From assembly GCA_037134875.1 (NCBI GenBank), contig JBAXLH010000001.1, forward strand, positions 5,322 through 69,321: a DNA stretch of 64,000 nt. Direction: 5' to 3'. The translations under genes and the position numbers were made by a program. Below, piece after piece: positions 4,840 to 47,085 of this stretch. This DNA comes from a bacterium. GTDB lineage: Bacteria; Patescibacteriota; Minisyncoccia; Phycocordibacterales; DATDWN01. The first letter of the stretch is position 1. Every line of letters begins with the position of its first letter. Under the pieces are notes generated by a model that saw only the letters and a list, made by a program, of their open reading frames with translations, was not told the origin of the DNA and did no database searches.

Positions 4840-5517
4840 TTATAAAGTGTACGATGAAAATTCTTCGAAAACTTCCTCTGGATTGTCTGCATCTAAAATA
4901 GCCGAGCCAGTAATGAGTTTTTTTGCACCTGCTTTGACAAGAGATTTTGCTGTCTCTTCGGTAACACCAATATCAATACCAATTATACAGTTCGGGTAGT
5001 GTCCATGCAATTGACTTATACGATTCAAAACTTTTAGATCGAGAGCGGCACCGTGTTTGCCGAGCGAATCATTTCCCATACATTGAATAAAATCAACTTG
5101 TGATACAAATTTGTCGAGTTTCGATAAGTCGGTCGATGGTTTGATAGCAATTCCAACGGTCACCAAATTTTCTTTGCAAATATCAATTACTTTTTGAAAA
5201 TTATCTGTTGCCTCGATATGCGCAACGATTGCTGATACACCGGTATAAATCCAATCTCGTACAACATCCTCTGGATTTTTGACCATAAGATGAATTTCAA
5301 AATCAACATCTTCCCACCTCGGCCAGCCTATTGCTTCTGTTTTCAACTTTTCAAAAAAATCAATGTCACGACCATTGTATGGCCATGTTTTGACGGGCGT
5401 AAACATACCATCGGAAATATCTATTTGGATGAGGTGTGCAAAAGACGCGACTCTGGAAATTTCTTCCTCTGTTTGTTCTCGCGTTTTTGGAATAATTGCT
5501 GGTACGACTATGGTCAT
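4840..5517 (-). CDS. rpe: Ribulose-phosphate 3-epimerase-like TIM-barrel protein
   Basis: 225 aa. The sequence …IDISDGMFTP…IHLMVKNPE…VAHIEAT… follows the Rpe pattern. The protein is divergent near the phosphate-binding loop. Confidence 0.65.
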   Translation of the reverse strand: MTIVVPAIIPKTREQTEEEISRVASFAHLIQIDISDGMFTPVKTWPYNGRDIDFFEKLKTEAIGWPRWEDVDFEIHLMVKNPEDVVRDWIYTGVSAIVAHIEATDNFQKVIDICKENLVTVGIAIKPSTDLSKLDKFVSQVDFIQCMGNDSLGKHGAALDLKVLNRISQLHGHYPNCIIGIDIGVTEETAKSLVKAGAKKLITGSAILDADNPEEVFEEFSSYTL

Positions 5518-22639: not shown

Positions 22640-22887
22640 AATTGTCTCCTATATATGATATTAAACAAATATCATTACTTGTCAAGTGTGACCCTACGCG
22701 GAATCACGATTACGTTTTCGGTCAGGAATAATTTTATCGCCATCGCTCAAAAATTTTCCCTACCCGGACTCGCGACCAGTCATGCTCGACTGGTACCCGC
22801 TCCGTCTTTCGATTCCGCATGAAATTGCATACTATGCAATTTCTGTAGGGTCATGCAAAAATCGCCACAAGGGCGATTTTGCTGACA

Positions 22888-22959
22888 TGACCCTACGCGG
22901 AATCGAACCGCGCTTCTAGCCTTGAGAAGGCTATGTCCTAGCCGATAGACGATAGGGCC
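22888..22959 (-). tRNA. tRNA-Glu (anticodon CUC), 72 nt, no encoded CCA
   Basis: The reverse strand reads GGCCCTATCGTCTATCGGCTAGGACATAGCCTTCTCAAGGCTAGAAGCGCGGTTCGATTCCGCGTAGGGTCA. It folds into a cloverleaf with a 7-bp acceptor stem (one G·U), a D-loop with GG, an anticodon loop TTCTCAA and a T-loop TTCGATT. Confidence 0.7.
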
Positions 22960-23057
22960 AATAAAAACAAAACTATGCACTGAAATAATATAACATTTTT
23001 TATTAAAAAATCAAAAACCGTCACGACGAGGTGGCGGAGTTGAAAAATTGTTTGTTT

Positions 23058-44541: not shown

Positions 44542-44757
44542 CTAATCCCCAACCGAAAAGAGTTTGCTCGGAGAATTGTGACCACTGACCAAAAGTACCT
44601 TGTGGCTACCAAAATGTTTGGAGACTAGCTCGATTACCCTCTTGTTTGCGAGATTTCGCTCCGCCCTCTCTCGTACCGAAACCAAAAAATGATCTTTATT
44701 TTTCTTGACAAAACTCTCTTTTTTGGCAGACGGCGTTACTTTGACATGAATGTACAT
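44542..44757 (-). CDS. DUF167 (YggU-like) protein
   Basis: The sequence MYIHVKVTPSAKKE…ANKRVIELVSKHF…LVSGHNSPSK matches DUF167. Confidence 0.55.
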   Translation of the reverse strand: MYIHVKVTPSAKKESFVKKNKDHFLVSVRERAERNLANKRVIELVSKHFGSHKVLLVSGHNSPSKLFSVGD

Positions 44758-44819
44758 ATAGACAGTATAAACGATTTTTGTTATCTTATAAATGTGTTTG
44801 AGTAAAAACACAAACATTC

Positions 44820-44842
44820 CGCGGTAGCTCAGTGGTAGAGTG
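44820..44842 (+). pseudogene. Truncated duplicate of the tRNA-Asn 5' end (23 nt identical: tccgcggtagctcagtggtagag)
   Basis: It is identical to 45013-45035. The downstream sequence lacks a T-arm or 3' half. Confidence 0.55.
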
Positions 44843-45012
44843 AGATTGGGGTGGGACCCAATCGCAAGACCGGAGCGCGACGGCGCGAGGTGGGGTCGCA
44901 GGATTTTTCAACAGAAAAATACCTGTGACGAGCCTGTGTGGTATATAACATTTTTGAACCCCTCTTGATTACTATTTTGAGAATAATAATCAAGACAAGT
45001 TTTGAAATATAT

Positions 45013-45366
45013 TCCGCGGTAGCTCAGTGGTAGAGCGATCGCCTGTAAAGTGCTTGCAGCTTCCTAAAGTAATTTAGGCTGAAAAATGAGGTGAATTCGG
45101 GGAAACCCCACGTGGGCAATCCCGAGCCAAGCCACTTTCAAGTTTTGATTTTTTATATTTAGAAATTAAAACTTGAAAGTGGAAGGTGTAGAGACTATCT
45201 CGAAAGAGAGTAGTTATTATTTTTCAAATAAAATAATCACGAAGCGCCCCACATCCCACTTGTTTATCAAAAATAGATAAAGGATGATGATATAGTCCAT
45301 ACCAAAGGCAACTTTGGAATCAATGTAAGCGATTGGTCGTAGGTTCGATCCCTACCCGCGGAGCCA
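45013..45366 (+). tRNA. tRNA-Asn (GUU) interrupted by a group I intron in the anticodon loop; CCA encoded
   Basis: The 5' exon TCCGCGGTAGCTCAGTGGTAGAGCGATCGCCTGT spans 45013-45046. The 3' exon TAAGCGATTGGTCGTAGGTTCGATCCCTACCCGCGGAG+CCA spans 45326-45366. The splice satisfies the group I rule (5' exon ends in U, intron ends in G). The alternative reading is Tyr(GUA) if the boundaries are shifted by 3 nt. Confidence 0.6.
45047..45325 (+). ncRNA. Group I self-splicing intron (no ORF)
   Basis: About 279 nt. It contains the conserved group I core element GATGATATAGTCC (consensus AAGAUAUAGUCC, P7/S region) near 45283-45298 and ends in G. Confidence 0.65.
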
Positions 45367-45744
45367 AAAAGTTTAAACCCCGAAAGGGGTTTTTACTTTT
45401 CTTGGCTCCGTGGAGCAGAACAGGGTTCTGCGTGTAGGGATCGAACAGTTTGTCGGTTTACAAGTTTAGCAAAACTTGTCGACAAACTGGTGGCCAGGAT
45501 TTTCTGTTTTGACGAAAACAGAAAATCTGAGGCCGATACCCCTACCCGCGGAGCCAAAAAGTTTAAACCCCGAAAGGGGTTTTTACTTTTCTTGGCTCCG
45601 TGGAGCAGAACAGGGTTCTGCGTGTAGGGATCGAACAGTTTGTCGGTTTACAAGTTTAGCAAAACTTGTCGACAAACTGGTGGCCAGGATTTTCTGTTTT
45701 GACGAAAACAGAAAATCTGAGGCCGATACCCCTACCCGCGGAGC
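45367..45744. repeat. Tandem direct repeat, 2 x 190 nt; each unit ends in a copy of the tRNA-Asn 3' end (cctacccgcggagcc) and begins with its inverted copy (ggctccgtggag)
   Basis: The two units are identical (45367-45556 and 45557-45744). Each has a terminator hairpin aaaccccgaaaggggttttt, an inverted degenerate T-arm-like segment (gtagggatcgaac) and two long hairpins. Confidence 0.8.
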
Positions 45745-45832
45745 AAGAGACCCGAAAGGGTCTTTTCTCATACCACACAAACACAACTTGACCAATTATT
45801 GACAACGATAAGTCATTGCTATAATTTTATTA

Positions 45833-46078
45833 TTGGAAAATATGAAAGGAAACATTAGTGATTTGAGTAGTAATGCAATAATCGCAATCATTGTTCTTTT
45901 GGAAATCGAGCACGAACCTACACACGAAGGGTTTACACTTTCTGAGCTACACAGAGAAATCAGTGAAAGTTTTGATGGGTCGGAAGACGACCTACGACAA
46001 AAACTGGATATACTCAAAGAAAAATACCCTGGATGTTTTAAGGAAGGCACTTACTGGGGAACTCCTAAACGCAAGTGA
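45833..46078 (+). CDS. Hypothetical small protein
   Basis: 81-aa ORF followed by the hairpin cgtcagctacggctggcggttttctttt. Confidence 0.3.
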   Translation: MENMKGNISDLSSNAIIAIIVLLEIEHEPTHEGFTLSELHREISESFDGSEDDLRQKLDILKEKYPGCFKEGTYWGTPKRK

Positions 46079-46349
46079 GTGACTCCCGCTTTAACTATCG
46101 TCAGCTACGGCTGGCGGTTTTCTTTTAGCGTTTTAGTTGACACATTTTCTTATTTATAGTATAAAATGCAAAGGAGAAAATTGTGCCCAAAAAAAGGATT
46201 TGCCCGATTTGTAAAAAACCTCAATCTGTTGAGGAAGATAAGTCAGTAAGTCCTGAAATGCTTGCCTATGGGAGCAATGATGCAGGACTGAGAATCAAAG
46301 TACATTTCACAGACGGTAAAAAATGTGAAGGAAGTAATATTATACTGCA

Positions 46350-46592
46350 ATGAAAACCTTGAAAAGTATGGTAATTAGTCGAATAGAAGAAGATGAAGGA
46401 GATCGTGTTCTCCTCTATACGACCAACTATTCTTTTTATGTAATTGCCTCCCCAAAGGAAGCAAGAAATTTGAACATCGGCGATACCATTGATTATGAAC
46501 CCTATGGGGCAAATTTTGGATGGTTTGTCGCAAAAAGGATTCAGAATCGAACACCTCTCGGCACAAACCCCGAAGGCGAGATTAAATTTTAA
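46350..46592 (+). CDS. Hypothetical small protein
   Basis: 80-aa ORF followed by a second copy of the cgtcagctacggctggcggttttcttt terminator (46620-46650). Confidence 0.35.
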   Translation: MKTLKSMVISRIEEDEGDRVLLYTTNYSFYVIASPKEARNLNIGDTIDYEPYGANFGWFVAKRIQNRTPLGTNPEGEIKF

Positions 46593-46704
46593 CAATCCAC
46601 CCAGAGTGGTTATGCAATCGTCAGCTACGGCTGGCGGTTTTCTTTGTGGAAAACTTGCACTATACATAAAAATATGTTTATATTTGGCCGGAAGGAGAAG
46701 GTGA

Positions 46705-47085
46705 GTGAAAAAGAAAAAAATCGAGGACTATCTCAGTCCTGGATTCATGAGAAAGAAGGAGAGGATTGTCCTCACGATAGGGAGAGAAGAAATCACCTAC
46801 CGAATGTTGGGCAAACTCATCGGACAGTTCAGTCCCCAAGCAGCATGGAGACTGAATATGGTTCTGGAGAGTTTCAAATCGAAAAAGCCAAAAAACATCC
46901 GGGACTTGGCCCTGAAAATTGATTTGAATGATCTGCTTGATGTCGGAGGAGTCGGTGAAGCCACCGTCGAACTCTGGCTATCAATATTGAATGCAAAAGG
47001 ACTCGATCCAGTGAAATGGCTCGATTCCAATACAAAAATCTTGACCGAATGCCAAAAGAGGCGTCGGCCCAGAAGACATTTTTAG
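46705..47085 (+). CDS. Hypothetical protein
   Basis: 126-aa ORF. Confidence 0.35.
   Translation: MKKKKIEDYLSPGFMRKKERIVLTIGREEITYRMLGKLIGQFSPQAAWRLNMVLESFKSKKPKNIRDLALKIDLNDLLDVGGVGEATVELWLSILNAKGLDPVKWLDSNTKILTECQKRRRPRRHF

Follow-up and report, generated by a model that had tools for sequence, protein, structure and literature searches.

Among the group I introns described in bacterial tRNA genes, the classical representatives (in cyanobacterial tRNA-Leu(UAA) and tRNA-fMet, Azoarcus tRNA-Ile and Agrobacterium tRNA-Arg) are small ribozymes of the anticodon loop, usually devoid of an open reading frame (ORF), with a U·G wobble at the 5′ splice site. The Williams 2020 survey (10.1101/2020.01.27.920355) reports that the isotype/site classes of such introns have been raised from 4 to 21 and that metagenome-assembled genomes (MAGs) of unnamed phyla contain 0.49 of them per genome; its seed alignment includes an entry named ‘Pam37.Asn.4Ug’. 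For the Candidate Phyla Radiation (CPR), a genome-closing paper (PMC8172020), citing a personal communication of P. Chan, mentions that some tRNAs have group I introns. In this work, we analyzed a 64,000-nt stretch of DNA (hereafter, the window) from a bacterium of the Patescibacteriota (assembly GCA_037134875.1, contig JBAXLH010000001.1, forward-strand positions 5,322 to 69,321). Judging from its sequence, the segment 45013-45366 of the window is very probably a functional tRNA-Asn(GUU) gene split between U35 and U36 by an ORF-less Asn.4Ug group I intron. The gene is flanked on both sides by elements that combine partial copies of the tRNA with hairpin modules. All coordinates below refer to the window and to its plus strand, unless otherwise indicated.

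The tRNA-Asn gene was missed by the default ARAGORN run, which called only tRNA-Glu in the window, as well as by the Rfam tRNA model, which gave a weak partial match below the threshold. When introns were allowed, ARAGORN recognized tRNA-Asn(gtt) at 45013-45366 with the insertion i(35,279) after CCUGU. The 5′ exon (45013..45046, 34 nt, tRNA nt 1-35) ends in CCUGU, and the 3′ exon (45326..45366, 41 nt) starts with UAAGCG and bears G as a discriminator directly before the encoded CCA (45364-45366). The spliced tRNA comprises 75 nt with the encoded CCA and 72 nt without it, and ARAGORN folds it into a cloverleaf with all four stems perfect and CUGUUAA as the anticodon loop. The exons are identical to those of the intron-less tRNA-Asn genes in relatives. 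Moreover, the intron-bearing gene is base-for-base the same in two metagenome assemblies (L007 and L011), that is, in three independent assemblies together with the window, and an assembly chimera is thereby excluded.

The intron itself occupies 45047..45325 (279 nt), as delimited by the Rfam model RF00028, ARAGORN and an ORF scan, and its last nucleotide is the ω-G at 45325. The RF00028 (Intron_gpI) match covers 45042-45318 and the whole model (positions 1-253 of 253), with 70.2 bits against a gathering score of 50 and an E value of 9.1e-16. The longest ORF overlapping the intron encodes 35 aa, so that there is no homing endonuclease ORF inside. In the P1 hairpin (45043..45059), the exon CUGU and two intron A residues (45043-45048) pair with UUGCAG (45054-45059) in six of six positions; the internal guide is GCAG, and the wobble at the 5′ splice site is U45046·G45056. 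P10 is formed by GCUU (45052-45055) and AAGC of the 3′ exon (45327-45330). The body of the intron, P2-P9 (45063..45317), was assigned from the Rfam alignment, a base-pair script, hand placement and a predicted fold. P1, P10, P2 (45063-68/45073-78), P3 (45087-93/45245-51, one mismatch), P4 (45097-102/45120-25) and P9 (45302-07/45312-17) passed the script at these coordinates; for P5 (45107-09/45114-16), P7 (GACUA/UAGUC, 45193-97/45293-97) and P8 (45252-56/45282-86) the scripted check failed at the initial coordinates, and these helices were re-registered by eye on the printed sequence. The long P6 hairpin (45126-45190) comes from a predicted fold, and two extra hairpins lie between P7 and P3′ (45198-45244). 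All the core helices from P3 to P9 were thus located, with a predicted guanosine site in P7, and the conserved core element GAUGAUAUAGUCC (45286..45298) corresponds to J8/7 and the 3′ strand of P7 in the Rfam alignment.

The fit of P1, P10, U-1 and ω-G places the junction at GU|U of the Asn anticodon. The other possible placement, creating Tyr(GUA), was rejected: it does not yield U-1 together with ω-G, as no G is left at ω, and the one-base shift produces a 4-base anticodon in ARAGORN. The Asn placement is preferred because it provides both U-1 and ω-G and a fitting P1/P10, the discriminator is G, and ARAGORN accepts only GUU; in bacteria, G73 is an identity element of tRNA-Asn. These results bear out what an earlier note had derived from the letters of the window without database searches, namely, a tRNA-Asn with an ORF-less group I intron of about 279 nt in the anticodon loop, a 72-nt product with the loop CUGUUAA and an encoded CCA, a conserved core element in an intron that ends in G after an exon ending in U, and an oversight of the gene by finders that do not model introns. 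ARAGORN returned the same coordinates, the core element is GAUGAUAUAGUCC with U45046 and G45325 at the two exon-intron borders, the Intron_gpI search proposed in the note gave the full-length match described above, and the spliced product, whose folding it had also proposed to examine, forms a perfect cloverleaf with the Asn anticodon in place.

The features listed above establish the identity of the intron, and from the chemistry common to group I introns we infer that it would be capable of self-splicing. Upon folding of the precursor, the exon CUGU would pair with the internal guide GCAG, with U45046·G45056 as the wobble, and an external guanosine bound in P7 would attack 3′ of U45046. The 3′ exon would then be aligned by P10 (GCUU with AAGC), and ω-G45325 would take the place of the guanosine, so that ligation of the exons would yield the anticodon loop CUGUUAA. 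The mature tRNA would then arise through processing by RNase P and through trimming of its 3′ end back to the encoded CCA.

Some features weigh against a functional intron. The exon contributes only 4 bp to P1, P3 contains a mismatch, and two extra hairpins separate P7 from P3′, in contrast to the compact P1-P9 architecture of the classical bacterial tRNA introns (subgroup IC3). Together with the absence of an endonuclease ORF and the partial tRNA copies nearby, evidence of past rearrangement at this locus, they could be taken as signs of a decaying intron that no longer splices, leaving a tRNA-Asn pseudogene. We find such a relic highly improbable: the covariance-model match is full-length and well above the gathering score, the core helices, U-1, ω-G and P10 are all intact, the exons make a perfect cloverleaf and do not differ from the intron-less tRNA-Asn of relatives, and three assemblies agree. 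Still less credible is the explanation that both the split gene and the 190-bp repeat 3′ of it (see below) are artefacts of assembly. The repeat copies are indeed 100% identical, the other assemblies have one unit fewer, and one public contig ends in an adapter sequence; nevertheless, the three independent assemblies agree on the intron-bearing gene and on one complete downstream unit or more, and such an explanation could apply to the second downstream unit only. A functional split tRNA-Asn gene thus remains by far the best reading of 45013-45366.

To define the distribution of such genes, one genome per species was scanned for GATATAGTC separated by 12-42 nt from GTAA, which in turn had to be followed after 14 nt by a T-loop, and split genes were then called with ARAGORN; the counts that follow hold among the matches listed. 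The scan gave at least 120 loci, nearly all of them in Patescibacteria MAGs and a few in genomes labelled Omnitrophota, Elusimicrobia, Planctomycetales or Gammaproteobacteria. At least 36 other tRNA-Asn(GUU) genes, mostly of Patescibacteria, are split exactly at CUGU|UAA by introns of 199-591 nt. The earlier note had considered a tRNA-Asn instance in a CPR-like genome uncommon, and this claim does not hold: the same site is occupied in all these species, and the class is catalogued as Asn.4Ug. The guide GCAG was found in 27 of 37 tRNA-Asn introns, with GCAGCC where the exon reads GGCUGU. The closest homologues of the window intron among these (L119, L117 and L083, the latter from a Paceibacterota MAG) are about 70% identical to it over the full length. 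Split tRNA-Thr genes (at least about 65, the majority with UGU) outnumbered split tRNA-Asn genes by nearly two to one, and a few ARAGORN calls of split Tyr, His, Asp, Lys and Leu genes were also obtained as candidates.

The eight introns longer than 500 nt (519-591 nt; L119, L121, L115, L074, L126, L125, L113 and L048) all have an ORF of 100-129 aa with an HNH motif in the P1 loop, starting just past the 5′ splice site. In a Pfam scan of three of these ORFs, one scored above the HNH cut-off and two just below it. One of the carriers, L119, is at the same time, among these matches, the closest relative of the window intron. Furthermore, loci with and without the intron were both found in metagenomes: L141 and L147 (with the intron) and L166 (without it) have identical tRNA-Asn exons and near-identical flanks, so that the intron is polymorphic for presence or absence at this tRNA-Asn site. 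In a second comparison, of L170 with L148 and L160, the exons are again identical and the loci differ in having the intron; here the upstream flanking elements show no more than similarity, and a downstream element is missing from both L148 and L160. As the same site harbors relatives with an HNH ORF, and near-identical loci occur with and without the intron, the sequences indicate that this family moves or has moved among Patescibacteria, the window copy being a minimal, endonuclease-free member.

By these sequence features, the window intron is a further member of the catalogued Asn.4Ug class, which is common in Patescibacteria; the assignment was made by the class name and by the shared isotype, site after anticodon-loop nt 4 (CUGU|UAA), U-1 and ω-G. 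It resembles the classical bacterial tRNA introns in its small size, the absence of an ORF, the anticodon-loop position and the U·G wobble, but differs from them in residing at the 35/36 site of tRNA-Asn, in having two extra hairpins between P7 and P3′, and in having relatives with an HNH ORF in the P1 loop. With the group I introns mentioned for CPR tRNAs in PMC8172020 it shares the phylum-level setting and the failure of standard finders to detect the tRNA; isotypes, insertion sites and sequences are not specified there.

The flanks of the gene, with their partial tRNA copies and a 190-bp tandem repeat that were absent from the earlier note, are less ordinary. Sublocation classes are known for integration into tRNA genes. 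Elements that integrate there leave partial tRNA repeats (PMC9897764); free-standing homing endonucleases such as SegB of phage T4 occur in tRNA gene regions (PMC2330249), and segmental amplification has been described in tRNA gene regions with homing endonucleases (PMC13096335).

Upstream of the gene lies an element (44818-45012) which we designated E5. It begins with a copy of tRNA-Asn nt 1-24 (44818..44841, 23 of 24 nt identical), found by a repeat search and in the sequence. The copy is followed by the module M (44842..44929), delineated from the sequence and homologous modules: GAGA, P1 (44846-44861), the junction UCGCAAGA (44862-44869), P2 (44870-44890), UGG and P3 (44894-44929). Our own covariance model R1 matches 44834-44868 in E5 at 30.8 bits. 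Next comes a degenerate copy of the 5′ strand of the anticodon stem and the loop up to the intron site (44930..44937), where GAGCCUGU stands against AUCGCCUGU. A 75-nt tail (44938..45012), in which an inverted-repeat search revealed an AT-rich palindrome (44950-45008), completes E5 directly before the tRNA gene; a possible origin of this tail from an endonuclease-bearing intron was rejected, as the alignment scores fell inside the shuffle range. The only promoter-like site near the locus, TAGACA-17-TATCTT (44759..44787), identified by its match to the consensus in 9 of 12 positions, is situated about 30 nt upstream of E5. Three short contigs from other samples (L003, L004 and L005) all stop within this site, at 44761-44763, and their common end suggests a structural variant in the population starting at this point.

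Downstream of the gene, a scan found a terminator-like hairpin, AAACCCCGAAAGGGGUUU, with a U-rich tail (45375..45404), which recurs at 45565. The downstream element E3, recognized by repeat searches and from the sequence, shows two units in the window. Unit 1 (45403..45556) opens with UGGCUCCGUGG, which is complementary to the 3′ end of the tRNA with its CCA (the inverted 3′ strand of the acceptor plus GCCA, 45403-15). After a hairpin (45416-30), the T-stem and T-loop are copied in inverted orientation (45432-46), and beyond two further hairpins the unit closes with the tRNA 3′ end copied in direct orientation, CCCUACCCGCGGAGCCA (45540-56). Unit 2 (45593..45744) is a 100% identical tandem copy with a period of 190 nt, and its final direct repeat (45730-44) lacks CCA. 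According to the repeat search, 45350-45744 accommodates 2.1 copies of the 190-nt unit, 100% identical and starting inside the tRNA 3′ end, so that the tRNA 3′ segment CCCTACCCGCGGAGC stands in direct repeat at 45350, 45540 and 45730. L007 and L011 have 1.1 units, one 190-nt unit fewer than the window; the copy number is therefore either polymorphic or mis-assembled. As a separate observation on these assemblies, the last 80 nt of L007/L001 (ENA ERZ27300137 k141_405694) consist of a Nextera adapter followed by poly-A, a contaminant in the deposited assembly.

The insert, 175 bp per unit, contains no ORF and no integrase. A second terminator-like hairpin, GAGACCCGAAAGGGUCUUUUCUC, seen by eye and absent from the terminator scan, follows the last direct repeat (45747..45769). 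Pfam matched none of the ORFs that follow most closely downstream; after them comes VanY. The region also contains a consensus TTGACA-17-TATAAT promoter (45799-45825), several small plus-strand ORFs with no Pfam match (45842-47085), and two copies of a 29-nt GC-rich terminator-like sequence, TCGTCAGCTACGGCTGGCGGTTTTCTTT, near 46097-46125 and 46617-46645.

The only other tRNA gene of the window, an intron-less tRNA-Glu(CUC) on the minus strand (22887..22960; ARAGORN, Rfam), has an element of the same type at its 3′ side (22689..22853, minus strand), so that both tRNA genes in the window carry a downstream element. According to its sequence, it is composed of an inverted copy (UGACCCUAC), a hairpin, an inverted T-loop, two hairpins and a direct copy (GAUUCCGCGUAGGGUCA). 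The inverted copy stops at the discriminator because the tRNA-Glu gene encodes no CCA.

We examined how often this architecture recurs. In the genome scan, 112 split-tRNA loci among the matches listed included 16 with a direct 3′ copy, 16 with an inverted copy, 10 with both (the window among them) and 11 with a 5′ copy. A metagenome scan for upstream elements (pattern GGTAGAGTGAGA, a 10-32 nt gap, TCGCAAGA) gave 43 loci (L132-L174), about 27 of which contain clear upstream elements of a common layout. Each starts with a copy of tRNA nt 1-24 or 1-25, followed by a module composed of GUGAGA, P1 (often with the loop UGGGA), UCGCAAGA, P2, UGUACAG or UGAACAG, and P3 with the loop UGUAA; a copy of the 5′ strand of the anticodon stem up to about nt 35-36, a 50-90 nt spacer and an intact cognate tRNA complete the layout. 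The cognate tRNAs are Asn, Ile, Thr, Val or Ala. Since most of them are intron-less, the flanking elements are independent of the intron. Where enough sequence was available, the downstream inverted copy was also present in 13 of 22 loci with upstream elements, as compared with about 14% in the unselected set, and it always comes with a hairpin exactly at the junction of the T-stem and the acceptor.

Outside the metagenome set, the module was found in L031, L032, L046, L057, L063, L066 and L068. A second module subtype (CCGGAG..CGAGG, UGG, GGUCGC..GUGACC) occurs in the window as well as in L157, L171, L146 and L031. Visual inspection shows the P1 loop UGGGA, the GGUGUAC(A/U)G junction and the UGUAA loop of the upstream modules also in the downstream elements of L141, L146, L170 and L068. 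Moreover, a covariance model for which only upstream modules were used has matches within the downstream elements of L031 (E 5e-5), L068 (E 4e-4) and L046, thus indicating that the two contexts share one module family. In its upstream form the family would be a tRNA 5′ half split at position 25/26, and in its downstream form a mimic of the acceptor and T-arm made of inverted and direct copies of the 3′ end. In Patescibacteria, its members adjoin tRNA genes for Asn, Thr, Ile, Val, Ala and Glu, whether or not these have introns.

The structure of the module is supported by comparison of its sequences. The different sequences collected for P1 (24) and P2 (27) nearly all form hairpins, except in L156, where P1 contains a nested insertion; for P1, the support consists of these per-sequence folds. 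When the stems were anchored on the conserved junctions, 120 of 130 cells were paired in P2 (shuffle mean 82, maximum 99) and 46 of 48 in P3 (shuffle mean 33, maximum 40). RNAalifold applied to a MAFFT alignment of 22 modules yielded 14 pairs, none broken and seven with compensatory double changes. Most of 15 elements have a more stable fold on the tRNA-sense strand than on its antisense counterpart, with a difference of 4-15 kcal/mol in 10 of them. An RNA transcribed from the antisense strand was therefore rejected, the differing helices having U·G on the sense strand where the antisense strand would have C·A. Because the junctions are conserved in many lineages and tRNA types, and P2 and P3 show compensatory changes, we infer selection on the folded strand. 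Neither a search of 44600-45900 with Rfam 15 at E<=10, which returned only the intron, a weak partial tRNA match and chance matches of the microRNA type, nor a search of eight related loci at E<=0.05 gave a match for the flanking modules. Taken together, the comparative sequence data indicate that the module is a structure under selection that recurs beside tRNA genes and is unmatched in Rfam 15.

Several known identities were considered for it and rejected. T-box, tmRNA, Y RNA and known ribozymes gave no match in Rfam 15. When the module was deleted from 28 upstream elements, none of them yielded a complete tRNA, the sole tRNA detected after such a deletion (in L134) being a separate downstream tRNA-Arg gene; the modules are therefore not introns of functional genes. 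One module pattern found no match in IMG/VR, which speaks against a phage origin. The UGAGA, UGGGA and UGUAA loops bear no more than a resemblance to the interdigitated T-loops or T-box-like structures described in reviews.

The elements vary in number and state. They are patchily distributed, being present at some loci of a given tRNA and missing from others. Tandem units are present in the window, L144 and L167; in L156, one module is nested in P1 of another; in L133 and L168, the tRNA part has decayed and the module is intact; in L046, the P3 loop of the upstream element and that of the downstream element each contain an 80-nt insertion bounded by TAAG. In five loci (L061, L095, L020, L041 and L033), the 5′-half tRNA copy is split by a GC palindrome in place of the module and is followed at its 3′ side by an 80-aa GIY-YIG ORF (Pfam PF01541, E 3e-12 to 7e-17) and then by an intact intron-containing tRNA. 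L062 has the same layout with no ORF called. The palindrome, CCTGCCTGCCGGCAGGCAGG, is identical in L061, L062 and L095 and differs by one base in L020. The loci with the GIY-YIG ORF may represent free-standing homing endonuclease cassettes.

Comparison with the described systems reveals both likeness and difference. As in the tRNA-integrating elements of PMC9897764, a direct repeat of the tRNA 3′ end begins in the T-loop, and the tRNA is kept intact beside the insert; in contrast to them, the window insert measures about 175 bp, has no integrase, and includes a conserved three-hairpin module as well as the tRNA end copied a further time in inverted orientation, while a mirror-image element duplicates the 5′ half of the tRNA. 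The related loci resemble the SegB-type systems (PMC2330249, PMC13096335) in the GIY-YIG ORF beside a tRNA, the duplicated tRNA segment and the nearby tandem amplification, but the window lacks a GIY-YIG ORF.

What the flanks represent can be stated only tentatively. We consider it a serious possibility, just short of probable, that they belong to an undescribed family of three-hairpin, RNA-like modules fused to partial copies of the neighboring tRNA, which would be either a new non-autonomous mobile element or leader and trailer RNAs of a new type that mimic the tRNA. Of the specific readings, the one we favor, with reserve, is that they are non-autonomous, intron-like selfish elements targeting tRNA genes. 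Such elements would insert at the junction of the D-arm and the anticodon stem or at the T-loop, would survive because the duplicated tRNA segment keeps the gene whole, and would depend on the conserved fold for their mobility or tolerance. Three points weigh against selfish elements: the three modules of the window are not recent copies of each other; the Pfam search found no recombinase or endonuclease gene adjoining the elements within the window; and an exact 31-mer search of metagenome contigs for an empty-site allele without the downstream element found none, a result that is uninformative. The first of these is more easily accommodated if the flanks are leader and trailer RNAs beneficial to the host, which mimic the cognate tRNA and serve as processing signals, nuclease decoys or regulators of maturation. 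The downstream elements of both window tRNA genes, the match of each copy to its own tRNA down to the encoded CCA or its absence, and the covariation within the module fit a host function as well; the only promoter-like site lies upstream of E5, so that co-transcription with the tRNA may occur. On the other hand, no more than about 10-15% of the sampled tRNA loci contain the elements, which may be present at one locus and missing from a close relative of it, and the nested and tandem copies and the decayed tRNA parts have the look of selfish elements. Although doubtful when taken by itself, a host function is nearly as likely as the selfish-element reading.

An explanation that requires neither selfishness nor function is that the flanks are mere scars of the att type, left by integrase crossover in the T-loop or D-arm or by repair of endonuclease breaks. 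A direct repeat that starts in the T-loop is the usual geometry of tRNA-targeting integrases, and the repeat of the tRNA 3′ end seen here (15-17 nt) starts in this way; moreover, the number of tandem units is variable (2.1 in the window vs. 1.1 in L007 and L011), the distribution among tRNA loci is patchy, and the same architecture occurs with GIY-YIG ORF cargo in the five loci named above, as well as in the layout of L062 where no ORF was called. Nonetheless, no integrase or endonuclease gene adjoins the elements in the window, and they are only 150-190 bp in size. Scars would not account for junctions conserved across lineages and tRNA types or for the compensatory changes in P2 and P3, and the more stable folding of the sense strand in most of the 15 elements, together with the constant hairpin of the inverted copy at the T-stem/acceptor junction, also speaks against them. 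We therefore regard functionless scars as unlikely and retain the selfish-element reading as the preferred one.

The finding of the intron is chiefly of practical value for tRNA annotation, as its class is already known and common in Patescibacteria: because standard tRNA finders miss the split gene, genomes like the source of the window would be scored as lacking tRNA-Asn. The flanking elements, for their part, would account for the ‘ghost exons’, a complication when split tRNA genes are mapped automatically. If our view of the flanks holds up, they would provide a conserved structured RNA candidate beyond Rfam, and the tRNA genes in these reduced genomes would be hotspots for layered elements, such as introns, endonuclease cassettes and the module, with the tRNA itself kept intact.

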